DNA from: Tagaea sp.
GTDB lineage: Bacteria; Pseudomonadota; Alphaproteobacteria; CACIAM-22H2
Assembly (NCBI GenBank): GCA_965228135.1
Contig: OZ245798.1
Coordinates: 1,469,220 to 1,533,219 of the forward strand
DNA: 64,000 nt
Reading direction: 5' to 3'
In this document: positions 1 to 13,119 of the stretch, one piece after another
How the letters are laid out: every line of letters begins with the position of its first letter
Numbering within the stretch: the stretch's first letter is position 1
Position numbers and translations under genes: made by a program
The notes under the pieces: model-generated
What the model was told of the DNA's origin: nothing
The model's input: the letters and a program-made list of their open reading frames with translations, nothing else
Databases searched by the model: none

Positions 1-1419
1 GCTGCTCCAACTGGGGAAGCAACGCCAGAGCAAACATCTGCAAGTGCAAGATTAGAAGAAATTACTCAGGCAAGTGCGACTCTTGAGAACTCACAACGCG
101 CGAATACAGCAAGCCGAGAGCAGTTGGCTCGGCGAAATCGAGCCATCATAAACATTGGCGAAAGACTTTCCATTATTGAGCAGCAGTTTAAAGATTTCTC
201 CACCGCGATTGATAACGACCTCGCTTTGCTAGAAATAAAACGCGACGACCTCGCCAAGCTCACCATTAATCGAGCAAAGCTAGAGGCACAAGTCGCTGCA
301 ACGAAAACAGACGCTGAGAAGCTTAGCGCCGAAGCGACCACAATAGACGTCGCTATAAAAACTATTAAAGCTGAACAAGAAACACTTACGGTGAAGCTGA
401 ATGAGCCTCAGCAACGTTATCAAAAGTATCTTGCTGAAAGCAAAGCATGGCAAGTAGCACTAGAAAAGATCGAGGGATCAGCCACACAACCAGATAGCAA
501 AAAAGGGCTTGAAGCTCGACTTGAGCAGATCAGCGCGCTCCCCCAACGACTAGAGAAACAGGAGAAAGAACGCATCGATCTGGTAAAAAAAATTCATCAG
601 GTACTATCGGCCCAAAGAGACGCGCGCGCCGCTTTATTTTCTCCAGTGCAAGAGCTAATCCAGGGCAACGCACTTATTCGCGATGAATATAAGTTAAAAT
701 TTCAAGCAAATCTTCAGGGCTCGCCTGAGTTAATAGCTGACAAGTTATTTGATATGGTGAAACAGGCGGTCGGACCACTTCGGGGAGAAGAAGAGAGTTT
801 CTTAGCGGTAAGAAAGAGATTTGAGAAATATAGCTTCAAGAACGCAGATGACGCGTCTGCGTTTGTAAAGGAGCTTCATGAGCTGATCGTTGAAGCCGCC
901 CAAGCCTCCGGCAATGCCGTGCCCGGCATACGATCTGCGCTACGCAAAGATAGAGCTGCCGCCGACGTGTACGATTTTATTTTTGGGCTCGAGTATTTAG
1001 AGCCGAAATATACTCTCCTCTTTCAAGAAACCGAGATCGAGCAATTGTCACCTGGGCAACGTGGCGCACTGCTTCTAATCTTTTATCTGCTTGTAGATAA
1101 AGGACGGAATCCCATCGTACTCGATCAGCCCGAAGAAAATTTAGATAACGAAACGGTAGTGAGTTTGCTGGTGCCCGTGCTCAACGAAGCAAAAAAGTCG
1201 AGGCAGATTCTTATGGTGACGCATAATCCAAACTTGGCGGTGGTTTGTGACGCTGAGCAAGTAATTCATGCAGTTTTCGATCGGAAGAATGGTGCAAAAA
1301 TCTCGTATAACTGTGGCTCCATCGAAGATGGCGTTATAAATCGCGCGGTCGTTGATGTTCTAGAGGGGACGAAGGTCGCCTTCGATAGTCGAGGTAGGAC
1401 GTACCATACCCAAGGTTGA
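1..1419 (+). CDS. SMC/RecF/SbcC-like ABC-type ATPase with coiled-coil arm, C-terminal portion (5' end cut by window edge)
   Basis: Frame 1 is open from nt 1, with no stop before the listed M at 124. A long heptad-rich coiled-coil segment is followed by the ABC C-lobe: signature LSPGQRG, Walker B IVLDQPE, D-loop ENLD, H-loop MVTHNP. Low GC relative to the rest of the window. Confidence 0.6.
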   Translation, partial: AAPTGEATPEQTSASARLEEITQASATLENSQRANTASREQLARRNRAIINIGERLSIIEQQFKDFSTAIDNDLALLEIKRDDLAKLTINRAKLEAQVAATKTDAEKLSAEATTIDVAIKTIKAEQETLTVKLNEPQQRYQKYLAESKAWQVALEKIEGSATQPDSKKGLEARLEQISALPQRLEKQEKERIDLVKKIHQVLSAQRDARAALFSPVQELIQGNALIRDEYKLKFQANLQGSPELIADKLFDMVKQAVGPLRGEEESFLAVRKRFEKYSFKNADDASAFVKELHELIVEAAQASGNAVPGIRSALRKDRAAADVYDFIFGLEYLEPKYTLLFQETEIEQLSPGQRGALLLIFYLLVDKGRNPIVLDQPEENLDNETVVSLLVPVLNEAKKSRQILMVTHNPNLAVVCDAEQVIHAVFDRKNGAKISYNCGSIEDGVINRAVVDVLEGTKVAFDSRGRTYHTQG

Positions 1420-1590: not shown

Positions 1591-2238
1591 TCAGCGCGCC
1601 ATAAACCCGTTGCGCATCATGCCGCGCATCGCCTCGAACAGTTTCGAGCGCTCCGACCACGCAAAGTCGGGATATGTGATGAGCAGCGAGACAAGCCCGT
1701 GGACGCTCGCCCAGATCGCCTCCGCCGTCGCGGCCGGATCGCCTTTGCGGAATATCCCCTCGTCCATCAGCCGCTTCACAAGAACCTCAAGCGCGCCGAA
1801 CGCTTGCTGGCCCTGATCGGCCGGATCGCGCGCCTTATCGGGGCGGTTGCGATGCCCCGGAACAAAAGCGGGCGCTTCGCTCATAAACAGCAAACGGTAC
1901 TCGCGCGGATGCGCGAAGCCGAATTGCATATAGACGTCGAAGAATCGCTCGAACGCATCGGACGGATTTTTGGCTTCGCGGCCCACGCGTGCGAAACCCT
2001 CGGCCAAAACGCGCATGGCGTCCTGGCAGATGGCGTGCATCAGCGTCTCTTTGTCCGCGAAATACAGATAGAGCGTCGTCGGCGTGATCCCAAGCTGCGT
2101 TGCGATACGACGCATCGTCGTGCGCGCATAGCCTTCCTTAAGGAATATGTCCTTGGCCGCGTCGAGGATCGTTTGGCGGCGTTCCGTTGCCGTCAAACGG
2201 GCGCGGCGGATCTTCTTCCTGGCGGGCTTGCGGGGCAT
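1591..2238 (-). CDS. TetR/AcrR family transcriptional regulator
   Basis: N-terminal HTH (TILDAAKDIFLKEGYARTTMRRIATQLGITPTTLYLYF) and TetR C-terminal ligand domain; divergent from an efflux operon. Confidence 0.85.
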   Translation of the reverse strand: MPRKPARKKIRRARLTATERRQTILDAAKDIFLKEGYARTTMRRIATQLGITPTTLYLYFADKETLMHAICQDAMRVLAEGFARVGREAKNPSDAFERFFDVYMQFGFAHPREYRLLFMSEAPAFVPGHRNRPDKARDPADQGQQAFGALEVLVKRLMDEGIFRKGDPAATAEAIWASVHGLVSLLITYPDFAWSERSKLFEAMRGMMRNGFMAR

Positions 2239-2288
2239 GCTTCCGGCTTACACTTTGCGGACGGGATTGGCGAGTGGCTTGACGCGAT

Positions 2289-2321
2289 ATAATAACATTG
2301 TTAACTTAACATCGTTATTAT
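2289..2321. promoter_or_regulatory. Palindromic candidate TetR operator in the TetR/efflux divergent intergenic region
   Basis: ATAATAAC-N17-GTTATTAT exact inverted arms with an internal GTTAAC palindrome, AT-rich, 18 nt upstream of the permease start. Confidence 0.4.
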
Positions 2322-2339
2322 TTTTCGACAAGGATCTTC

Positions 2340-3482
2340 ATGTCCATCTCTCCGGGCCTTCGCGACCTGCTCGCCTGGCGCAATCTTGCGCACGACAAGG
2401 TGCGGTTCCTCGTCACCTTGATCGGCATCGTCTTCTCCGTGACGCTGATGGCGGTCCAAACCGGCCTTCTCACCGGCTTCGTGACGACGATCTCGAAAAT
2501 CGTCGACAAGACCGACGCCGATTTATGGCTTGTGGGCCGCGGCGTGCGTTCGGTCGATCTGCCGGCGAACATTCCCGAACGGCGCCGCTTTCAGGTTCTC
2601 GGCGTCGACGGCGTCGCCGCCGCCGATCCTTTCATGCATGTCTTCGCGCAGATGAAGCGCCCGGATGGCGGCGCCGAAAGCGTCGCGGTCGTGGGCTTCG
2701 ATCTCGCCACCGGGCGCGGAGGCCCCTGGGGTCTGGTCGAGGGCGATATCGCCGATCTGGCCCTGCCCGACGCGGTGGTGATGGATCGGCTCTATAAGAA
2801 GAAGCTCGGTGTTGAACGTATCGGCCAAACGATCGAGGTGAACGGCCGGCGCGCGCGCGTCGTCGGTTTCACCGACGGCATTCGCACCTTCACCCAAAGC
2901 CCGCATCTGTTCGCCGACATCAAGACGGCGCGATATCTGACCGGCTACGGCGAGGATCGGCTGAACTACGTGCTGATCGAAACCGCCCGCGACGCCGATC
3001 CACAGGCCGTCGCCGCGCGCATACGCGCACTGCTGCCCGATATCGACGTCTATACCAAAGCCGAATTCTCGACGCGGTCGTCGATGTATTGGCTGGTGAC
3101 GACGGGGGCGGGCTTCTCGCTGGTCATCGCGTCGGCGCTCGGTCTTATCGTCGGCATGGTCGTGACCGCGCAAACGCTTTACGCGACGACGATGGACCGT
3201 CTGCCGGAATACGCGACGCTGCGCGCGATGGGGGCGCCGGGAAGCTATCTCTACGGCGTCATCCTGCGCCAAGCGGCGATCGCAGCGGTCTTCGGATTCG
3301 GCGCCGGTATATCCATCGCCGCGTTCATCGTCCATGGCGCGCGCGACGGATCGGCGGCTATCCTCTTGCCCTGGCAGCTCGCCGCGGGTCTGGGCTTGGC
3401 GACATTCGCGATGTGCGCGGCGGCGGCGGTGATCTCCATCCGGCGCGTCATGGCCATCGATCCCGTATCGGTGTTCAAATGA
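2340..3482 (+). CDS. ABC transporter permease, FtsX/MacB/DevC family
   Basis: N-terminal TM, large periplasmic domain, C-terminal 3-TM FtsX-like domain; stop overlaps the next start (ATGA). Confidence 0.8.
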   Translation: MSISPGLRDLLAWRNLAHDKVRFLVTLIGIVFSVTLMAVQTGLLTGFVTTISKIVDKTDADLWLVGRGVRSVDLPANIPERRRFQVLGVDGVAAADPFMHVFAQMKRPDGGAESVAVVGFDLATGRGGPWGLVEGDIADLALPDAVVMDRLYKKKLGVERIGQTIEVNGRRARVVGFTDGIRTFTQSPHLFADIKTARYLTGYGEDRLNYVLIETARDADPQAVAARIRALLPDIDVYTKAEFSTRSSMYWLVTTGAGFSLVIASALGLIVGMVVTAQTLYATTMDRLPEYATLRAMGAPGSYLYGVILRQAAIAAVFGFGAGISIAAFIVHGARDGSAAILLPWQLAAGLGLATFAMCAAAAVISIRRVMAIDPVSVFK

Positions 3483-4183
3483 CGGCACTGGTCGAAGTCG
3501 CGGACGCGCGCGTCGTCTACGGCGCGGGCGAAGCCTCAATCGAAGCGCTCAAGGGCGTCTCGCTGGAGGTGCGCAAGGGCGAGATTCTGATGCTGATGGG
3601 CCCGTCGGGCTCTGGCAAGACGACGCTGCTGCAGGTCGCGGGCGCGCTGCTGTCGCCGACCGCCGGCACCGTGCGCCTTGCCGGCGAACGGATCGACGGA
3701 ATGACGCAGGAAAATCTCGGCCGCCGGCGCCTGCGCCATTTCGGTTTCGTCTTCCAACATTACAATCTGTTCCCCGCGTTGACGGCGGCCGAGAATGTCG
3801 CGATCGCGCTCGATCTCAAAGGCGTGCCCGCCGCACGGCGCCGCGCGGCCGCCCACGAAGCGCTCGACCGCGTCGGCCTGGGCGATCGCGCGGCGCATTT
3901 CCCCTCGCAGCTCTCGGGCGGCCAAAAACAGCGCGTCGCGATCGCGCGCGCGCTGGCGGGCGAACCCGACGCGATTCTCGCCGACGAGCCGACCGCCGCA
4001 CTCGACAGCGCGTCGGGCAAGCGCGTCGTCGATCTGCTGCACGACCTCGCCAAAGCGCAAGGCCGAGCGGTGGTGCTCGTCACGCACGACCCGCGCATCG
4101 TCGAAGCTGCCGACCGCATCGTCCATATCGAAGACGGACGAATTCGCGACGCCGCCGAACAGCCCCTTCCAGCCGAGGCCTGA
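3479..4183 (+). CDS. ABC transporter ATP-binding protein (MacB/LolD-type)
   Basis: Walker A GPSGSGKTT, signature LSGGQKQR, Walker B ILADEPT, H-loop. The listed ORF 3089..4183 is an artefactual N-terminal extension; the true ATG at 3479 overlaps the upstream stop. Confidence 0.85.
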   Translation: MTALVEVADARVVYGAGEASIEALKGVSLEVRKGEILMLMGPSGSGKTTLLQVAGALLSPTAGTVRLAGERIDGMTQENLGRRRLRHFGFVFQHYNLFPALTAAENVAIALDLKGVPAARRRAAAHEALDRVGLGDRAAHFPSQLSGGQKQRVAIARALAGEPDAILADEPTAALDSASGKRVVDLLHDLAKAQGRAVVLVTHDPRIVEAADRIVHIEDGRIRDAAEQPLPAEA

Positions 4184-4184
4184 C

Positions 4185-5243
4185 ATGAACCGGAAACTCT
4201 CCCTCACTCTTGCCGTCCTCGCGATCGGTGCAGGTGCGGCGACGCTGCCGATGATCGGCGGTCCGTCGGCGCAAACGCCGTCCGCCCCGCAGACTTTCCG
4301 CGCCGCCCTTCCGGCGGGGGCGATCGCCGCGCCGGGGCGCGTCGAACCTGTGGGCGAGGAGCGCGACATCGCGGCGGAATTGCGCGGCCGGCTTGCCGCC
4401 GTTCTCGTCGACGAAGGCGACAAGGTCGAGGAAGGTCAGATCCTGGCCGAAATCGTCGACGGCGAATATCGCGCGCGCGTAATGGCGATGCGGGGATTGG
4501 TCGCTGTGCGCGAGGCCGAGCTCGCGCGCGCGTTGGCCGGTTCGCGCACGCAAGAACGCCGAGAAGCGGCCGCGATGGTACGCGAGGCGCAAGCCTCGCT
4601 CGATCAGGCCCGGATCGATCTCGCGCGGCGCGAGCCGCTCGCCGCTCAGGGGCATGTTTCCCGCGAGACGCTCGACAAAACGCGCTCCGACGTCACCGCC
4701 GCCGAGGCGCGCCTTCGCGCCAAGCGTGAGCGCGCCGATCTGCTCGATGCCGGCAGCCGCAGCGAAGATGTCGCCGTGGCGCGCGCCCTTCTCGACCAAG
4801 CGCGCGGGCAACTCGCCGAGGCCGAAGCCTTTCTTGAGAAAACGCGGGTGCGCAGCCCGATCGCGGGCGTGGTCCTGCATCGCTTCAAACGCTCGGGCGA
4901 AGGCGTTTCGGATCAGCCGCCGACGCCGATCGTCAAACTGGGGGATATCTCGGAGCTTCGGGTCCGTGTCGATGTCGACGAGACCGATGTCGGCCGTGTC
5001 GCGGTCGGTCAGCGGGCATTCGTCACCGCCGACGCTTGGTCGGGCCGACGGTTTCAGGGAACGGTCATCCGGGTGGGGCAACGCCTCGGCCGCAAGACGT
5101 TGCGCACCGACGATCCGACCGAACGGAACGATACCAAAGTCCTCGAGACCTTGGTGGCTCTGGATCCGGTCGAGATCGCCTTGCCGACCGGTCTTCGCGT
5201 CGACGCGTTCATCCTGACGGCGCCGCAGATCGCTTCCCGGTGA
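4185..5243 (+). CDS. HlyD-family periplasmic adaptor (membrane fusion protein)
   Basis: Signal/TM MNRKLSLTLAVLAIGAGAA, coiled-coil hairpin, beta-barrel and lipoyl motifs (PIAGVV...). The listed ORF 3795..5243 is an extension through the ATPase gene. Confidence 0.75.
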   Translation: MNRKLSLTLAVLAIGAGAATLPMIGGPSAQTPSAPQTFRAALPAGAIAAPGRVEPVGEERDIAAELRGRLAAVLVDEGDKVEEGQILAEIVDGEYRARVMAMRGLVAVREAELARALAGSRTQERREAAAMVREAQASLDQARIDLARREPLAAQGHVSRETLDKTRSDVTAAEARLRAKRERADLLDAGSRSEDVAVARALLDQARGQLAEAEAFLEKTRVRSPIAGVVLHRFKRSGEGVSDQPPTPIVKLGDISELRVRVDVDETDVGRVAVGQRAFVTADAWSGRRFQGTVIRVGQRLGRKTLRTDDPTERNDTKVLETLVALDPVEIALPTGLRVDAFILTAPQIASR

Positions 5244-5750
5244 GTCCGGCACGTCGAGTTTTTCGATTCGGATGTCGAAATTGCCGGACCACGTGGCCCA
5301 TCGTTACAGAATCGACATCGGGCCGCTTTCTTCCGCTTACCAAAGGAACCCGCAATTCGTTACATGATCGCGTTCCGCGAAACCGACGGACAGCTCAAGG
5401 ACCGCAACAACTTCCGGAACTCGTACGCTTATTGGGGGCTTGGGGCGCCTGCATCATTGCACTCCATGCGACGAGTCATCTCGTCAGCGGCGCCGGTCTG
5501 CAGCCGCGCTCCACCGCGACGACCGCCCGTATGCGTAACGACGAATTTATCGTTCGGGACGGCCCTTTCGACGATACCAAGGAACAGCGCACGGGATCCT
5601 TCGTGATGCCCCCCGATCCGGATGCGGCTCTTGGCCGGGCGGACTTCTCTGTCTCTCGCGTGACGGTCGGCGCGGCGGGATTCGAGTCCGAAGCGGCATC
5701 GTCATAACCGTAAAGCCGAGGCCAAGATGGAGCGCTTCGACGCCGTGACG

Positions 5751-6179
5751 TCACAACTTTGGCGGTGGAGGCGCCGACGTCGGGACCGACGCGATGTGCA
5801 TTCTATCCAGCATCGCCTGAAGGTGCGCGACGGCGGCATCCGACAGCACGAGATACGCGCGACGCCGGTCGCGCGTATCCGCCTCGCGCTGAATCACACC
5901 AAGTCGAATCAAATCATAGATACGCCTCAAAGACGTCGTCTGCGTCCCCCCCGAAGCCAGGCAAAGGCTCGACACCGAAATTCTACGCCCCCGCAGCATC
6001 GACAAATAGAGATCCAACATCATGAACCATGAGTGATCGCGAAATGCGCCGCTCGGCCAAGGTCCATTTTGAGTATCCCGCACGCTTAGCAACGCTTCGA
6101 GTTGCGAAACACGTCTAAAATTGTCCTCGACGCTCATGTCACAACCAGTTCGAATCGATCGTAAGAGATTTCCGCCCAC
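5751..6179 (-). CDS. Winged-helix (MarR-like) transcriptional regulator
   Basis: ISVSSLCLASGGTQTTSLRRIYDLIRLGVIQREADTRDRRRAYLVLSD is a typical MarR recognition-helix plus wing with DRRR. Low-GC region. Alternative start at M15 (nt 6137). Confidence 0.55.
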   Translation of the reverse strand: MGGNLLRSIRTGCDMSVEDNFRRVSQLEALLSVRDTQNGPWPSGAFRDHSWFMMLDLYLSMLRGRRISVSSLCLASGGTQTTSLRRIYDLIRLGVIQREADTRDRRRAYLVLSDAAVAHLQAMLDRMHIASVPTSAPPPPKL

Positions 6180-6188
6180 GCCTTCGAC

Positions 6189-6662
6189 TTATTGCGGGAG
6201 GGGAACGAAGATATCGGCCATCGAACTCCGTACGAGACGAACCGGGAATGATTTTTTCCCCAAGTCTTCGTCGAAGATGCGTTTGACGTCCGAAAGCGAG
6301 CGCGCTTCGACCGCGAAAATATAGAAGTCGTGAAACGCACCCCGCTCGATCTTCGGCGACTTCAAACCGTTTTCGTATGCGACATTCGCGCGATCGAAAT
6401 CCTCGAAGAACCCAAACTCGCGAGTACATATAGGAATCGAACGCATATCGCCGACATGTCCCACCGGTCTCGTCACCGTGAACTTGAAATCGCCGTCGAC
6501 AGCCTCATGCACGGCCCAGTTATCGAGATCGAAAAACCAGCCGCTCAATGAGAGGGGAATATTGGCGCCATGCCGATGCTCCAACACGTAGAACTCCCGT
6601 TTGCGGCGGAGGATCCGAACGTTAAAGCCGATCGCTTTTGTAAGCCTTACAAGAATACGCAT
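6189..6662 (-). CDS. Hypothetical protein (157 aa), no recognisable motifs
   Basis: Intact ORF in the low-GC island, 9 nt upstream of the MarR-like gene and 116 nt downstream of the FlaF-like gene (operon-like). Confidence 0.45.
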   Translation of the reverse strand: MRILVRLTKAIGFNVRILRRKREFYVLEHRHGANIPLSLSGWFFDLDNWAVHEAVDGDFKFTVTRPVGHVGDMRSIPICTREFGFFEDFDRANVAYENGLKSPKIERGAFHDFYIFAVEARSLSDVKRIFDEDLGKKSFPVRLVRSSMADIFVPLPQ

Positions 6663-6778
6663 ACGGCCCTTGCGCGGAACCCGGGGTCTTGCGGAGATGT
6701 TCTCGTGCCGCGGGATATTCGGATTGAGAACGTCGATCCGGCGATCATCGCATGACGACTTTTGGATAGATTAACGGG

Positions 6779-7162
6779 CTATCCGGATGGCGAGGCTTCC
6801 GGCTGCGGCTCCAAACTCAATCCCTCCATAACAATCCTGTTGATCGACGCCAGGAAGTCGACGTCCGTTTCCGAGTACTGCCGAATTGCGGCGTTCGATA
6901 TCCCATTGACGACGACGGCAAGCTCCGCGACCAGTTTCTTCGTCGCGGCGGGCAACCTGTTGTCCTGATGGGTCACATCCAAAGCGAACGCATTCCAAAC
7001 CTCGCGGTTGTGCTGAACCGCGTCTAAAAACGATGCGAGCGACTGCGGATCCGTGGCCCCGAACCCCTTCTTCGCCGCGATCAGCTTCTCATTCAGCCGA
7101 TCGAGAAGAAGGTATTCCCGCCTACGTGCCGGCATCGCCTCCCACTCCTCACGTCCGAACAT
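6779..7162 (-). CDS. flaF: FlaF-family protein (flagellin translation regulator homolog), orphan copy
   Basis: Matches the FlaF family pattern: RREYLLL near the N-terminus, NREVWNAFALDV...DNRLP...KKLVAELAVVV, and DVDFLASINRIVMEGL near the C-terminus. GGGAGG SD upstream of the Met at 7162; the listed ORF extends to 7222. Confidence 0.5.
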   Translation of the reverse strand: MFGREEWEAMPARRREYLLLDRLNEKLIAAKKGFGATDPQSLASFLDAVQHNREVWNAFALDVTHQDNRLPAATKKLVAELAVVVNGISNAAIRQYSETDVDFLASINRIVMEGLSLEPQPEASPSG

Positions 7163-7289
7163 CCATGTTCCTCCCGGTTTCCTTCCGAAGCTCGTTTGTA
7201 GGTGACGCCATCCGCGCCACACTTCTTCGACAACGATCGGTCTCAGCCGCGCACCAAAGCGGGGCGCATCGCCCGAAGGAGATCGACAC

Positions 7290-7560
7290 CGAAGCCAGCA
7301 ACACTTGGTTTATTATTATTTTTTCTTTACATCGTCATTTTTTTACCATCTTTTTTTAGACGACCTTCGACAGAGAGCATCGCCAAACCACTCCACCCCG
7401 CCTTATGTCAATCAACGCGGGACCGATACCATCGGTGTGCGCAAGCGAAACCAAGCCCGGATTCGTCTAAAAATTTTAAACATAATCCCGCAGACCAAAG
7501 AATACATATTCCACGCGCGAAAGAGCGTTTTCATGCAAGCGGTCCAATTCTGAGGGTCGT
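7290..7560 (-). promoter_or_regulatory. AT-rich putative promoter/5' leader region upstream of the FlaF-like operon
   Basis: Very AT-rich tract (tattattattttttctttacatcgtcatttttttaccatctttttttag) in otherwise GC-rich DNA, with no credible coding frame. Confidence 0.3.
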
Positions 7561-7698
7561 CTCGCTCGGGCGCGAAAGGCGATTCGCGATTTGGGAGCGA
7601 AAATGCATGCCAGTGATGGTGAAGCTCCAACGCACGAGATTTTTTCCGATCGATCGTCGGATCAAATCGACTGCGTGTCGGGAAGCGTTGCGCGCTCA

Positions 7699-7992
7699 TC
7701 AACGCATCTTCACCCATTCCATGTCGATCCGCGTTCGCACTGAAAGCTCTGTCCCGGTTGGCGCCGCGTGAAATCGCAAAATCTGAAAGGGCTTACGGAA
7801 AACCAATACCGCCGACGCGGAGCGAACCGCGACGATCCGACGCCAGCCGAGATACGACAACAGCTCGTCGAGTGTTCGCATGACATCCTCGACCTTGCCA
7901 TCGACCTCCAAGGTTCCGATCTCGTCCCTCCGCAGCAGGAACGACTCCAACCAGGCCGGCTGTCGGACAATCGCTTTGGAAGCTAAAGACAT
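7699..7992 (-). CDS. Hypothetical protein (97 aa)
   Basis: ORF whose start overlaps the 3' end of the 411-aa gene by 10 nt (coupled); low-GC island. Confidence 0.4.
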   Translation of the reverse strand: MSLASKAIVRQPAWLESFLLRRDEIGTLEVDGKVEDVMRTLDELLSYLGWRRIVAVRSASAVLVFRKPFQILRFHAAPTGTELSVRTRIDMEWVKMR

Positions 7993-9218
7993 TTTCCATC
8001 CGACTGGCTGTTCAAAGTCACGTTAATTCTGGTCAACATCTCTTCGAGCTCTTCAGTCGTCAAACGCTTTGCCACGGCGGCCCCCGTATAGCGCTGAAAG
8101 ATGCTTGAGCAGTGCCGTAACGCCATCGAGCAGTACCCAAGAACCCAGTAATACTTATCGACATTCCCGAGAAAATTCCGGAACGCAGCGGGCTTTCCCT
8201 CGGACATCAGCTGTCGATGGCTATCGTTGTACTTCTTGAACACTTCGATCATTTGCTGGGAAACGGTCCGTAGCTTTTCGCGGACGGAGGACTTGAACAT
8301 TCGTTGTTGCTCCAGGCGGGACCGGTCCGGCCGATCCTTGGGCTCCGATGCCGCCGAAACAAGCCAATCCAACAGCGCTTCGATGCCCGGCCGCGCTTTC
8401 TCGAAATTCACGCGATAGAAGGCAATTCCTTTCCATCCTTCGATCACCGATCTTGCGCTTGAGCTTGATATGCCCAGCGCGCCGAGAAACACCTCCGCGT
8501 CCGATTGCTCCGGATTCCAGAGCGAGTCGAGGAACGCTTCGGTTCTCTCGTTCACGAGATGGGGGGCCTCAAGCCGCAACGCTCTGGCGACGATCGGACG
8601 AAGCTTCTCCGAGATCACTTCGCGTACCGCCAATTCCTCGTCCTTAGAGATCAAGAAATACGAAGGATCGATTTCATCAAGACAGAATGACAGGGCGCCT
8701 TTCAGCAGGAATGGGTCAAGGGAAGGAATTCCATCGATCGCCTTCAATATGGCGACATCCCGCTCGTAGGCGACGCTGCTTTCCTGCAGATCGAGACCGA
8801 TATGTCGTTTCAACAGCGCCTCGAAATCGCGCTGACGCAGATAGATTCCGTATCCGCCAGAGAACAGATCGCTCGGATCGTGGGGAATATATATAGCCGT
8901 CTCTATCGGCCGCTTGGCCCCCGGTTTCTTCTGCACCGCCACCGCGGCGTTTACTTTCGAGGAACCGCGAGCTTCTTTCGCCGCATCCCAGCTGGCATCT
9001 GATATGTCTCGATCGAAATTCGGGTATTTGAATATCACCGTGTGATTGAGAAAGGTGCATCGGAATATCTTCGCGGCGGCGGGAACGTCGTTTGATTTGA
9101 TCAAATTCAACGCAACCGACGCGCCGCCGTTGCATATCTGATCGAGAAGCGGCGACACAAAACGTCTCGCCTTAGCGCCGCTTGCCCCCCCTGTCTGGCT
9201 CACTTCATTCGGCGACAT
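7983..9218 (-). CDS. Hypothetical protein (411 aa), no recognisable catalytic motifs
   Basis: Long uninterrupted ORF in the low-GC island with protein-like composition, downstream of the receiver-domain gene. Confidence 0.5.
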   Translation of the reverse strand: MSPNEVSQTGGASGAKARRFVSPLLDQICNGGASVALNLIKSNDVPAAAKIFRCTFLNHTVIFKYPNFDRDISDASWDAAKEARGSSKVNAAVAVQKKPGAKRPIETAIYIPHDPSDLFSGGYGIYLRQRDFEALLKRHIGLDLQESSVAYERDVAILKAIDGIPSLDPFLLKGALSFCLDEIDPSYFLISKDEELAVREVISEKLRPIVARALRLEAPHLVNERTEAFLDSLWNPEQSDAEVFLGALGISSSSARSVIEGWKGIAFYRVNFEKARPGIEALLDWLVSAASEPKDRPDRSRLEQQRMFKSSVREKLRTVSQQMIEVFKKYNDSHRQLMSEGKPAAFRNFLGNVDKYYWVLGYCSMALRHCSSIFQRYTGAAVAKRLTTEELEEMLTRINVTLNSQSDGKCL

Positions 9219-9334
9219 AATGGTGCGCTTCTCGTACTGGATTTTTATTAGTCACTGTATATTTACTATCGATACACTGGGGGCGAGTTGAATCGCAACT
9301 AGTCTGTTGGGCCCGGAACGGAAGGAAGCCAAAA

Positions 9335-9766
9335 TTATCGGACTGGCTGCGTTTCTTTTAGAATTGCGTTCAGCTGCTGCGCCGATGGCGGCTTCGCAAG
9401 CACGGACACTAGATCGACACCGGATAACCGTTTTTTTACGTCGTCCAGTTCTTTGGAAAGACAGAATACAAAAAATGGTGTGTTCTGAAGGCGCGGAACG
9501 AAGCGAGATAACGCAACGAGCTGGGCCCCCGTAAAGTATCGAAGTGCCTGATCCAATATTATTGCCGAGAACCGGCTCATGGTTATCAATTCGAATGCTT
9601 GGAAGCCATCTATTGCCAGTTCACAGTCATAACCCTGCTTAGCCAGAACTGATTCACACCTCGAACGCATCAAGTCGCATTTGGAACCGATCAAAAATCG
9701 GCGATCCACTTCAGTGTGAGTTGCGTCCGTTGTTTTTCCGAATCGCACTACCGCTTCTCCGTCCAT
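9335..9766 (-). CDS. Stand-alone receiver (REC/CheY-like) domain protein, atypical
   Basis: Beta-alpha pattern with phosphoacceptor Asp (AIILDQ), conserved Ser (VFCLSKE) and Lys-Pro (LAKPP). The N-terminal acidic pair is replaced (LIGSKCD). Has a 21-aa N-terminal extension. Confidence 0.5.
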   Translation of the reverse strand: MDGEAVVRFGKTTDATHTEVDRRFLIGSKCDLMRSRCESVLAKQGYDCELAIDGFQAFELITMSRFSAIILDQALRYFTGAQLVALSRFVPRLQNTPFFVFCLSKELDDVKKRLSGVDLVSVLAKPPSAQQLNAILKETQPVR

Positions 9767-10342
9767 CGCGTCGAAGCGGTTTGTACGCGCCGGCCTTCTG
9801 CCAGATCAGTTCAAATGTCGGAATTGCACCATCAGGGCAGATGATCTGCGGGATTCAGTATCAAAACTTAGTTCAATATCGACGAACAATTCGATCGCCT
9901 CGCAAATAACGTCGCATTTTTCAATTCATCGCCGGTCGTCGGAACGCGCGGCGCGATATGATTGTGTTGTTGTCGGACGTCTTGTCGGTCTGGCTTCGCG
10001 CCATCGGCATCGAGGGACCGCCGGCGATGAAGATACCAAAGTCTCCGGCAATTGCTTGCTCATCAAAGGACTGAAGACGATCGAACGATTGATCCAAGCC
10101 AAGTACTCCCCTGACGTCGCCATTCGGCCCTTCAGTTTGGATTGAATCTTTTTCATTCGAGACCGACGGCAGCTCATTCTTACGTTCGACGGCCTCGGCA
10201 ATCCGAGTAGCGGAGTAATAAGAGATCGTGCGCCTATTTGATGGATACAATTCTTCGCAGCGCTCATCAGTTACGCTTCAGCCAATTGGCATGAACTTAA
10301 AATGTTGCGATTTGGTAGGCTTCGTCTCTCGTGGAGAACAGA

Positions 10343-12604
10343 ATGTCTGGGCTGCTTTCGCGTCTACGTATTTCGCTCCAAGTATCGCTTATCGGTATCG
10401 TCGGAGTACTGGGTCTGGTCGCGGTCGGCGCGATCTATTTCGTGGGAAGCGCCAATCAGCAACGTACGCAAGCCTTCGCCGATCGGCAGGGCGCCCTCGA
10501 CGATCGGCTGAAAGCCCTCGACATCGACCTGTTGCAGACACGCCGCCACGAGAAGGACTTTTTGCTCCGGCGCGAGGAGACTTACGTCGCGCGTCACGCC
10601 GCCGCCCAGCAAGCGGCGGCCAAGAATCTCGCCGCGATCCTGTCGGGCGCAAGTGACGCCGAACTTCGCGCGGACGCCCAGAAGGTGCAAGCGGGCCTTG
10701 ATCTGTACCGCCAGCAATTCGCCACCGTCGTCGCCGAGCAGACGAAACTCGGCTTGAACGAGAGTTCCGGCCTGCAAGGCACGCTGCGCCGATCGGTGCA
10801 GGCGGTCGAAGCCGCACTCGCGCGCCACGACTTGCCGCGCCTGGCGGTCACGATGCTGATGATGCGCCGGCACGAGAAGGACTACATCCTCCGCGGCGCA
10901 GCAAGCTACGGCGAAGATATGAAGAAACGCGCGGCCGAGTTCGCGGCCGCCTTGCCCGCCGCCAATCTGCCAGCCGCCGAACGCGACCAAATCGTCCAGC
11001 TGATGGACGCCTACCACCGCGATTTCGCGGAATTCATGTCGACCGATCAGAAACTCCGTGCCGACATACGCAAATTGTCGGAGGCCTACGCGGCGCTCGA
11101 ACCCGAACTCGATCGGATGGCAAAGCGTATCGTTTCGGCGCAGGAAGTCGCGCTCGCCGAGCTCGCCGCAAATCGCGAAGCGACGGCAGCGACGCTCGGG
11201 ACGACGATCGCGATCGTGACGCTGCTCGTCGCACTGCTCGCCTTCGTCATCAGCCGCGGCATCGTCCGGCCGGTGACGTCGCTGACCGGCACGATGGCGC
11301 GCCTCGCCGCCGGCGATCTCGATGTCGCGATCGACGGTGCCGCGCGCAAGGACGAGTTGGGCGCTATGGCGCGCTCGGTCGAGGTCTTCAAGGAAAACGC
11401 GATGGAAGCGCGCCGACTGCGCGCCGAGCAAGCGCGCGCGGCCGAAGAAGCCGAACGGCAGAAGAAACAGGCGCTGATGGATATGGCCGACACGGTCGAA
11501 CGCGAGACCGCCAACGCGCTCGCCGCGATTGCGAAGAATACGCTCCAGGTCAATGGCGCAGCCGAAAGCATGTCGAGTCTGGCGCAAGAAGTGACGATGG
11601 ATTCGCAGGCCGTAGCCGCCGCCTCGGAAGAGGCGCTGGTGAACGTGCAAACAGTCTCTTCGGCGGCCGAGGAACTTTCCGCCTCTATTCGTGAAATTGC
11701 GACGCAAGTGGCGCGCGCCTCCAGCGTGACGAAGGGCGCCGTCGAAAGCGGCGAAAAAGCGCGCACGACGATCGGTTCGCTGTCCGAGGCGGTTGCGCGC
11801 ATCTCGGAGGTCGCTAAGTTGATCGGTCAGATCGCCGGACAAACGAATTTGCTGGCGCTCAACGCCACGATCGAAGCCGCACGTGCGGGCGAAGCCGGCA
11901 AGGGATTCGCGGTGGTCGCTTCGGAGGTGAAAAACCTCGCCACGCAGACGGGCCGCTCGACAGAAGATATCGACCGCCAAGTTGCGGAAATCCGCACCGC
12001 GACGGATGCCTCCGTGGCAGCCGTTAGCGAGATCGGCGATCGCATCCGCGAAATCGATTCCGTCGCTACGGCGATCGCCTCGGCGATGGAGGAGCAAGGT
12101 GCGGCGACACAGGAGATTGCGAGAAACGTGGGCCAGACGGCGGACGCTGCGCGCGAGGTCTCCTCGAAGATCCAGAATGTCAGCCGGGAGGCGGATAACG
12201 TAGGCGCACGCGCGAGCGAGGTACGCGGCGCGATCGGAGGCGTCGGCAGAAGCCTGGAAGAGTTGAAGCGTATTCTCGTGCGGGTCGTGCGCACCTCCAC
12301 CGCCGACGCCGACCGGCGCAAGCACGTACGCCATCCGGTCTCGGCGAAGATCGATGTCTCCGACGGCGCCGGCAAAAGAATCGATGCGGTGCTCGTCGAC
12401 GTATCGCTTGGCGGCGCCCATTTCCGCACAGCGTCGACGCTCAAGCGCGACGAGCGCGGCACGATCCGATTCGACGGATTGGCTTCGCCGATCGCCTTTG
12501 TCGTGCGCCTGCGCGAGGCCGACGGGGCGGTACATGTCGAGTTCCCGGCGGGTGCCGCGGGCGAGGATTTCGGCGCTTGGCTTAGCCAGCGCAGTGCGGC
12601 CTAG
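10343..12604 (+). CDS. Methyl-accepting chemotaxis protein with C-terminal PilZ (c-di-GMP-binding) domain, Tlp1-like
   Basis: TM1, periplasmic region with duplicated RRHEKD(F/Y)(L/I)LR motif, TM2, HAMP, MCP signalling domain, then C-terminal RRKHVR...DVSLGGA PilZ motifs. ATG at 10343 preceded by a GGAG SD; the listed GTG at 10331 is in frame. Confidence 0.85.
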
Positions 12605-13119
12605 CTGATAACGCGCTCTCTCGCGGTCAGGCATCCGCTTCGTGTCCGTCACATTGCGCGATGCTGACGGCCGCCCCGCCCGTTTCGACGATGCAAATCT
12701 CGACAGCCGTGAGGTCCTCTGCCGGAGTGGCAAGTGCAAGTGGCCGAGCCTACGTCTTCTCTAAATCATTACGTATTTGCAGTCCGGAACCTAAACGGCG
12801 TCGGCTTTGCTTCGATCGGCAAGCGATCCGAGGGGCCCTCAGTCCCCCAGACCGTAAAAAACTCTGCTATTTCAATATTGTTTTCCGCATTATCGAGGCA
12901 TTTCGAGGCCTTTTGTGGAAAATGAAAACGCCTGATTCTCTATACTTGTCGATCGACATCCAGACGCCTCTCTCGTATGCGCAAGGCGCAAACAACTAGG
13001 CAGGCATCAGTCCGCATGAGTCTCACTCCTCATTTTGTGAGTTCAAAGCCCCTACGGCACGCCAAAGGCAGCTGATCGAAGGTGGGTGCGCTCCTCGCAA
13101 CGCCGTTTCTCAGCTGGAT

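Follow-up and report, generated by a model that had tools for sequence, protein, structure and literature searches.

What does a compact, GC-poor set of six genes do in an alphaproteobacterial chromosome, and how did it come to sit where it does? We pursued this question for a stretch of 64,000 nucleotides (nt) from Tagaea sp. (GenBank assembly GCA_965228135.1, contig OZ245798.1, positions 1,469,220 to 1,533,219 of the forward strand), hereafter the window, in which all coordinates are counted from the first base. An original prediction, made from the letters alone, had marked positions 5751-10330 as an island of low guanine-plus-cytosine (GC) content that holds two minus-strand operons. In order of transcription, the cassette reads pseudo-receiver, a 411-residue paralogue of a larger family (u411) and a 97-residue protein (u97), followed by a FlaF paralogue, a 157-residue orphan (u157) and a MarR-type regulator. 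With good confidence, we describe it as a cassette limited to one genus-level Azospirillales-like alphaproteobacterial group, one that is both inherited and exchanged as a single unit, by replacement of alleles, and that lies in a variable neighbourhood of the chromosome. As to its function, we put forward, tentatively and as a possibility that we do not hold strongly, a post-transcriptional accessory module with a link to motility or the flagellum.

All six open reading frames (ORFs) were recovered on the minus strand, where they had been predicted and in the same two operons. The upstream operon encodes the receiver (143 amino acids (aa), positions 9335-9766), u411 (411 aa, 7983-9218) and u97 (97 aa, 7699-7992), and the second encodes the FlaF-like protein (127 aa, 6779-7162, in an ORF open to 7222), u157 (157 aa, 6189-6662) and a winged helix-turn-helix (wHTH) protein of MarR type (126 aa, 5751-6131, in an ORF open to 6179). 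Measured against three relatives, all six were under purifying selection, with ratios of nonsynonymous to synonymous substitution rates (dN/dS) of 0.06-0.31, versus 0.4-1.2 for ORFs in the spacers, and for that reason we regard the six as real genes. The original prediction had named a FlaF-like gene, an atypical receiver and a MarR-like wHTH gene, and each of these identifications held, the last one weakly; it had also seen no enzyme, transporter, phage or transposition gene in the cassette, and domain searches found none. The overlap that it had noted between the start of the 97-aa gene and the preceding gene amounted to 10 nt at the stop codon of u411, an arrangement that suggests translational coupling. 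Of its two spacers in the FlaF-like operon, that of 116 nt, between the FlaF-like gene and u157, was correct, and that of 9 nt became about 57 nt between u157 and the wHTH gene, by the Met start at 6131 that is conserved across relatives. Finally, it had called u157, u97 and u411 unassignable. Searches of Pfam, NCBIfam, PADLOC and PHROGs, profile searches against PDB sequences and, for u411, structure searches indeed left the three without a known family; the picture of u411 as a one-off orphan gave way to membership in a large unannotated family.

All six genes recurred, their order unchanged, in eight other assemblies (L089, L090/L091, L092, L094, L095, L096 and L097) and at two chromosomal positions. 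In the first, which is that of the window, the cassette lies between a methyl-accepting chemotaxis protein (MCP) gene and a MacAB-TetR region with a MacB/HlyD-type exporter operon; in the second, about 10-15 kb off in the same general neighbourhood, it lies between a sugar-uptake operon with a GH gene and RTX/LysR genes. When the window was compared with L090/L095 in 200-nt bins, identity was 0.93-0.99 outside a hyper-divergent minus-strand block at 5820-9780 (± 100 nt, as placed by the bins against L090) and 0.53-0.88 within it. Across the cassette, identity was 77.8%, versus 97.4-98.1% for the adjacent MCP gene in the same genomes, and both breakpoints fell inside terminal genes, on the left within the last ~25 codons of the wHTH gene and on the right at about codon 12 of the receiver. 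Five haplotypes were distinguished, 74-78% identical to one another, and L096 and L090 had cassettes that were 95% identical and MCP genes that were just 88% identical. Because the phylogeny of the cassette is discordant with that of its flank, and not because of GC content, we infer horizontal exchange: cassette and flank have separate histories, with whole alleles exchanged by homologous recombination. The hallmarks of an integrating island were lacking in the window, in which we detected no integrase or recombinase domain (Pfam, NCBIfam), no transfer RNA (tRNA) or transfer-messenger RNA (tmRNA) target, no Rfam family at gathering thresholds and no direct or inverted repeats that bound the cassette. 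The recurrence of the gene order in the eight assemblies and at two chromosomal positions, together with the exchange as a block, agrees with the earlier view of an accessory unit rather than of metabolism or housekeeping.

We then considered what the recognizable parts of the cassette say about its function. The FlaF-like protein matched PF07309 with 58.1 bits against a cut-off of 23.6 (expect value (E) 1e-15), covering model positions 12-113 of 113, and was 36% identical to canonical Azospirillum FlaF over 81 aa (E 9e-13). Its start at 7162 is conserved and preceded by a GGGAGG ribosome-binding site, the product is likewise 127 aa in the relatives, and dN/dS was 0.11. In Caulobacter, FlaF is a secretion chaperone of flagellin that works with the translational repressor FlbT (PMC7591256). 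The canonical layout in Azospirillum is flagellin-flaF-flbT, and u157 occupies the position that flbT (151 aa) has in such loci. With 6 clusters among 5.8 billion proteins, u157 is rare; its AlphaFold2 (AF2) model was of low confidence (predicted local distance difference test score (pLDDT) 37), and its dN/dS was 0.10-0.16. The third product of this operon, the wHTH protein, reached 17.4 bits for HTH_27 against a cut-off of 22.2 (E 5e-3), and matched MarR-family chains in the PDB (2fbk and others) at E 2e-4 over residues 29-114, that is, 86 residues. Its NCBIfam matches were weak (MprA, 20 bits versus 157, and MsvR), its dN/dS was 0.12-0.24, and we presume it to be the autoregulator of the operon in which it lies.

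A second line of evidence came from loci at which relatives of u411 have other partners. The u411 of the window belongs to a paralogue group of 60-85% identity that was found in three arrangements: the six-gene cassette; u411-u97 behind a TetR gene (L006, L105); and u411 divergent from fliG, a flaF-like gene (127 aa) and a lipoprotein gene (L007, L101 and L102, the latter two being metagenome or metagenome-assembled genome (MAG) contigs). In the last of these, from a related lineage, the u411 paralogue was 63% identical to that of the window, and the FlaF beside fliG in L007 was 38% identical to the FlaF-like protein of the cassette. The MAG JADCGK01 carried a core u411 copy alongside both the TetR and the fliG-flaF-like arrangements. 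The cassette thus unites partners that u411 paralogues have separately elsewhere, and u411 is linked to the flagellar apparatus only by association. The FliG encoded in the third arrangement is complete (three Pfam domains, E 1e-27 to 1e-38) and stands with the FlaF-like protein and a predicted lipoprotein of 186 aa (L007 5607-7811, L101 1196-3328, L102 202-2334), apart from other flagellar genes in the available sequence; the L007 copy lies partly in a dip of low GC. The lipoprotein in L007 was compared with u157 and with the wHTH protein and was rejected as a homologue of either.

It is because of the homology to FlaF, the known role of FlaF and the independent arrangement of u411 with fliG and a flaF-like gene that we favour a motility-linked module. 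Minor support is given by the single-domain receiver of CheY type and by a chemoreceptor with a PilZ domain that neighbours the cassette in one of its two contexts. Under this proposal, the FlaF paralogue would play the part of its Caulobacter counterpart, a cytoplasmic chaperone that engages a helical client and determines what becomes of it, and u157, at the flbT position, would be the dedicated partner or client of the paralogue. The MarR-type protein would repress its own operon via a conserved pseudo-palindrome about 300 nt upstream. The products of the overlapping u411 and u97 genes would form a complex, a specialized duplicate of the single-copy core u411 protein. The CheY-like pseudo-receiver would be a dispensable adaptor.

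Several observations weigh against this proposal. The FlaF-like protein remained below the NCBIfam equivalog cut-offs (58.9 versus 91 bits for PRK12794, 31.7 versus 99 for PRK12793), and by sequence it classes as a member of the FlaF family but not as an equivalog. Comparison by hhalign rejected u157 as a hidden FlbT (probability 0.1% against Azospirillum FlbT) and u411 as a hidden flagellin (2.5%). No flagellin, FlbT, hook, export or motor gene was found in the cassette or in the rest of the window. Among about 100 loci, the association with FliG and FlaF recurred in just one other arrangement, adjacency to the chemoreceptor is lost in the second chromosomal context, and the core u411 orthologues lie next to aroC, ftsH or secA, which is a housekeeping context and not a flagellar one. 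Moreover, the hyper-divergent alleles, a paralogue on a plasmid and a defence-type ATPase gene 4 kb away suit a role in conflict about as well.

The composition of the cassette bears on a different alternative, that its genes have no function in common. GC content was 0.535 across 4.5 kb (5851-10350) versus 0.644 ± 0.015 elsewhere, as measured in 505 windows of the same size from the same 64 kb, none of which overlapped the island and the lowest of which had 0.588; the island is about 7 standard deviations under their mean, and the window as a whole averages 63%. GC changed within a few hundred bases at ~5.85-6.0 kb and at ~10.35 kb, and GC at third codon positions was 0.50-0.71 in the six genes versus 0.75-0.81 in flanking genes. 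The markedly low GC and the sharp boundaries of the original prediction were thereby reproduced. Its phrase "foreign-composition DNA" fared differently in its two halves, since the low GC is real but does not serve as evidence of foreign origin. Specifically, the u411-family gene was below its own flanks in GC at all 90 loci that could be scored among L001-L092, by 5.9 points on average, and this held also for copies that are vertically inherited, such as those of Azospirillum, beside aroC, ftsH or secA. Low GC is a property of the u411 family and, because every locus scored lies below its flanks, it is by itself unreliable as a sign of recent foreign origin; the whole cassette in the window, at about 11 points low, falls further below its surroundings than is the norm in the family. 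Candidate causes of the low GC in the family are amino-acid composition, weak expression and selection for AT-rich DNA. The predicted extent also required division. The low GC does extend to ~10.35 kb, but the stretch at 9.8-10.33 kb was 94-97% identical to L090, as the flanks are, versus 53-88% for the cassette in 200-nt bins; it is an AT-rich upstream region shared with the chemoreceptor gene and evolutionarily part of the flank.

If low GC is intrinsic to the u411 family, as the 90 loci indicate, the cassette could consist of two small operons without mutual relation, neighbours by chance, that hitch-hike together and whose genes are fast-evolving, weakly expressed paralogues and orphans, its composition reflecting that of the family along with relaxed codon usage. 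The operons are 536 nt apart, each with upstream elements of its own, the receiver is decaying in L097, and u411-u97 and the FlaF-like gene are separate in another lineage, all of which would fit. We nonetheless judge this rather improbable. The two operons have kept their adjacency, order and orientation across five haplotypes that diverge by ~25% and at two chromosomal positions; u411 paralogues stand independently beside a FlaF-like gene in a different arrangement; and all of the genes are under purifying selection.

The u411 family itself proved to be large. Exhaustive HMMER searches recovered 852 clusters at 50% identity (55 by a word-indexed search). The family has more than 578 genomic loci, with members almost all of 365-410 aa and of a single domain. 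They occur in Azospirillum, Tagaea, Nisaea, Ferrovibrio, Oceanibaculum and related MAGs, with more distant copies on Asticcacaulis plasmids, and none of 40 diverse members had a Pfam match. Residues F52, K64, G121, D154 and D168 are invariant, the last within a PSLDPFLL motif. The AF2 model of u411 (pLDDT 81) consists of a small N-terminal domain with a four-stranded sheet and a C-terminal domain of long helices, for which no fold relative was found among PDB structures or in BFVD (best BFVD E 0.35). In its main line, the family is represented by a single gene that is passed on vertically and that lies directly downstream of an SDR gene in Tagaea-type and Azospirillum loci. Proteins of 370-490 aa that neighbour u411 at about 90 loci were considered as u411 paralogues and rejected by hmmsearch, and profile searches of the collected u411-family loci gave no further remote copies of u97, u157, the receiver, the wHTH protein or the FlaF-like protein. 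In Nisaea and Thalassobaculaceae, u411 is part of a conserved same-strand cluster of a small ORF, an HD/YfbR-like phosphohydrolase, u411 and two unassigned proteins of 372 and 465 aa (L001 9051-13833; also L016, L018-L020, L022, L033, L072 and L083), in which only the HD protein had a Pfam match and none had a PADLOC match. One genome, OY829383.1, contained three u411 copies.

In comparison, u97 was found in only 7 clusters among 5.8 billion proteins and at four loci in a metagenome scan, and both u97 and u157 were found solely in the cassette and in a small number of close relatives. Of the six proteins, u97 is the best conserved, with 81-93% aa identity between haplotypes and dN/dS of 0.07-0.16, and a homologue of 51-60% identity likewise overlaps the end of the u411 paralogue in L006 and L105. 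A more far-reaching version of the motility-linked proposal, which we regard as a long shot, would make u411-u97 the accessory form of a new and widespread cytoplasmic family (Azospirillales, Rhodospirillales, some Caulobacterales) of unrecognized fold, with K64, D154 and D168 as a catalytic or ligand-binding centre, that acts on the rotor or export gate (FliG). A FlaF-type chaperone pair would be coupled to it, the five alleles would be under balancing selection, for example by flagellotropic phages or for partner specificity, and motility control would here be exerted by an exchangeable module of a new class.

A large gene with an overlapping small one is also the typical architecture of the pairs that act in conflict between genomes, whether in anti-phage or anti-plasmid defence, in addiction or as toxin and immunity. 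In a module of this kind, u411 would be the effector and u97 its small neutralizer, regulation would fall to the MarR-type protein and the receiver, and divergent alleles would be kept by frequency-dependent selection. The five haplotypes are deep and roughly equidistant, alleles have been replaced between near-identical genomes, and the invariant lysine and two aspartates of u411 could be catalytic. The low-GC DNA, the variable neighbourhood and the defence-type ATPase gene at 124-1419, which is missing from L090, point the same way, as does a u411 paralogue on plasmid p5 of Azospirillum argentinense that lies amid VapC, MazF, HicA, BrnT, Fic and IS3 genes. Against this stand the searches aimed at such systems. 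The six proteins were negative in PADLOC and PHROGs, the best scores in PADLOC-DB 2.0 being E 0.0017-0.05 to unrelated long models and those in PHROGs weak receiver-type matches only, and the partners of u411 at other loci were also without a match. Neither Pfam nor NCBIfam revealed a nuclease, NTPase, protease, methylase or membrane-effector domain, and there was no relative of u411 in 2.9 million viral contigs or in BFVD. Moreover, most members of the family are single genes without u97 in housekeeping synteny, which would be unexpected for a toxin, dN/dS is low throughout and gives no hint of diversifying selection, and the presence of a FlaF paralogue would go unexplained. On balance, we consider a conflict module unlikely.

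The second chromosomal context raised yet another alternative. In L092, L096 and L097, the wHTH gene is followed on the same strand by a gene for a calcium-binding RTX repeat protein (PF00353, E 6e-23; L092 11212-11970, L096 5821-6518, frameshifted, and L097 11366-15334), which ranges from 252 to 1322 aa and has a conserved C-terminal domain, and in the other context the cassette abuts an exporter operon with HlyD-family, ABC and FtsX components. The cassette might accordingly serve the accessory control or chaperoning of a secreted RTX surface protein, with a role in adhesion or surface behaviour, and the copy in the window would have lost the RTX gene. Against this, no RTX gene follows the cassette in the window, L090 or L095, and no RTX homologue was found in the 64 kb; the six genes are under purifying selection there all the same. 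The adjoining exporter is of MacB type (FtsX and MacB_PCD), not a type I secretion ABC protein of HlyB type, and it is part of the conserved flank. RTX secretion is not known to require cytoplasmic chaperones. We therefore hold this explanation to be highly doubtful, and the probability that remains after the motility-linked module and the three alternatives falls to something else.

The receiver that precedes u411 was a marginal member of its family, with 31.5 bits for PF00072 against a gathering score of 30.2 (E 2e-7), and matched receivers in the PDB at E 6e-6 to 9e-4, its best solved relatives including CheY and Spo0F. It retains the acceptor aspartate (in IILDQ) and the conserved lysine (in AKPP, which corresponds to (V)KPF of solved receivers), both of which are kept in four haplotypes. 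The acidic pair that binds magnesium is replaced by Ser-Lys in the window and by S-S, S-N or A-N in other haplotypes. Aligned by hand with what we take to be the corresponding stretch of Escherichia coli CheY, FLVVDDFSTMR, the sequence FLIGSKCDLMR places S and K at D12 and D13, and a motif GS(K/N/S)CD is conserved in the receivers of the relatives. The protein carries an N-terminal extension of 20 residues. With the highest dN/dS of the cassette (0.31), its gene is the least constrained, and in the L097 haplotype it has decayed to a remnant. No histidine kinase or histidine phosphotransfer (Hpt) gene was found in the cassette or its immediate flanks. The signalling role that had been proposed for the cassette was thus left undemonstrated by a receiver that lacks the acidic pair, is the least constrained of the products and has decayed in one haplotype, and by the lack of a kinase.

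Two non-coding regions were distinguished. The first is the AT-rich spacer and leader of 536 nt between the operons (7163-7698, minus strand), which was only ~55% identical between haplotypes apart from three conserved non-coding blocks (about 7457-7609) that were invariant across all five. Within these blocks lies a pseudo-palindrome (7459-7488) with arms GGATTATGTTTAAAA and TTTTAGACGAATCC. Its arm pattern occurred once in the window versus 0.08 times expected, and recurred at the corresponding position in L089, L094 and L097 and, in part, in L092. Since it is conserved, and since a MarR-type gene is encoded in the operon, it is a plausible candidate operator or promoter for the FlaF-like operon. 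ORFs in this spacer had dN/dS of 0.4-1.1, and RNA structure in it received no covariation support. The second region (9767-10330; GC 0.48-0.54) is the divergent AT-rich intergenic stretch between the receiver operon on the minus strand and the chemoreceptor gene on the plus strand, and is presumed to contain the promoter of the former. Four small ORFs (9921-10250, 9926-10267, 7412-7717 and 7305-7553) were rejected as genes by dN/dS and poor conservation, and orf109 and orf113, in the second region, had no match in L089 or L092. A sigma-70 scan returned 0 sites, terminator-like sites were at chance level, and among CtrA, sigma-54, sigma-28 and EcfG patterns nothing was conserved. An 11-mer common to both upstream regions, AATCCCGCAGA, was likewise at chance level and not conserved, and was dropped.

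Beyond the cassette, the window and the otherwise near-identical L090 and L095 genomes share just one block of ~11.3 kb (1600-12900), outside which their sequences are unrelated. To the right of this block, the window encodes oligopeptide-type ABC ATPases and a gamma-glutamyltranspeptidase and L090 encodes sugar-ABC permeases, which suggests a highly rearranged and flexible neighbourhood. To the left of ~1600, the window could not be aligned with L090/L095, where a LacI sugar operon follows the TetR gene. The window has there a low-GC islet (124-1419, plus strand, GC ~0.46) that encodes a 431-aa ATPase of ABC/SMC type with AAA_21 and SMC_N domains and with PADLOC matches to Ppl (E 6.5e-20), mad3 and AriA; it probably belongs to a defence system that continues beyond the start of the window. 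The chemoreceptor that flanks the cassette on the other side (10331-12604, plus strand) contains HAMP, MCPsignal and C-terminal PilZ (E 1.5e-8) domains, an architecture that resembles that of the Azospirillum brasilense receptor Tlp1, which binds cyclic di-GMP.

Just downstream of the chemoreceptor gene, at 12840-13030, we noted a conserved non-coding element of ~190 bp, of which this is the only copy in the window and at which synteny between the window and L090 breaks. Copies were present in L092 (6360-6553 and 12143-12333) and L096 (6684-6879), with partial ones in L090 (6295-6421) and L095 (4007-4173) and none in L097. The two direct copies in L092 bracket the cassette together with the RTX gene, and the copy in L096 leads directly into a tRNA-like 3′ end (GGGTTCGAATCCCGCCGCTCCGACCA) with a hairpin terminator behind it. 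Searches with ARAGORN and at Rfam gathering thresholds were negative, a tmRNA match was below threshold (13.9 bits, E 0.0015) and support from RNAalifold was weak. The element may be an att-like remnant, a small mobile repeat or an unrecognized RNA.

If the motility-linked proposal is true, chaperones of FlaF type have been recruited outside the control of flagellin, and a first handle on function is gained for a family of at least 852 clusters that lacks a Pfam model, annotation and any solved structural relative. Whatever its function, the cassette is a clean natural example of allele replacement that involves a whole multi-gene module. It also provides a caution for the calling of islands by composition, in that the u411 family was low in GC in every genome examined, even where vertically inherited.

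We finally compared the cassette with known systems. Like anti-phage and toxin-antitoxin systems, it is small, has a variable neighbourhood, pairs a large gene with an overlapping small one and includes a linked HTH regulator; unlike them, it had no match to 5027 PADLOC models or to PHROGs, no recognizable effector domain and no viral relatives. Its receiver shares with single-domain CheY-like receivers and pseudo-receivers a stand-alone fold of ~120 residues with acceptor Asp and Lys, but differs in its Ser-Lys pair (Ala-Asn in one haplotype), in the extension of 20 residues at its N terminus, in having no partner kinase or Hpt protein in the cassette, and in being the least constrained component, lost in one haplotype. 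As in autoregulated MarR operons, the winged-helix protein, whose similarity to solved MarR proteins is weak but consistent, would control the very operon that encodes it, upstream of which a conserved AT-rich pseudo-palindrome is found; in contrast to these, the wHTH protein has just 126 aa and remains below the Pfam cut-off, and the candidate palindrome is ~300 nt before the first start codon.

In replacement-type flexible genomic islets, divergent versions of the genes at one locus are swapped by recombination in conserved flanks, as in O-antigen and flagellin-glycosylation loci. The cassette resembles these in its 78% identity between flanks of 97-98%, its sharp breakpoints, its several deep haplotypes, its discordant phylogeny and its low GC. 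It differs in that its alleles correspond to one another as homologues, gene by gene, and do not consist of different gene sets, in that it has no genes for surface structures or glycosylation, and in that the window has neither an integrase nor a tRNA nor bounding repeats. With the FlaF-FlbT module of Caulobacter crescentus and the flagellin-flaF-flbT loci of Azospirillum, it shares a FlaF-like protein of the usual size, 127 aa, that covers the whole Pfam model, and a protein of ~155 aa encoded after it on the same strand, as flbT follows flaF; a FlaF-like gene of the same size also stands beside fliG in a related lineage. In contrast to that module, the cassette has no flagellin gene, its u157 is not FlbT, and its FlaF-like gene is joined to a MarR-type gene and to a receiver-u411-u97 operon in horizontally exchanged DNA of low GC. 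No described system has the composition of this cassette. Its recognizable parts are ordinary families in unusual company, and its evolution, as a replacement-type islet, is of a kind that is already known.

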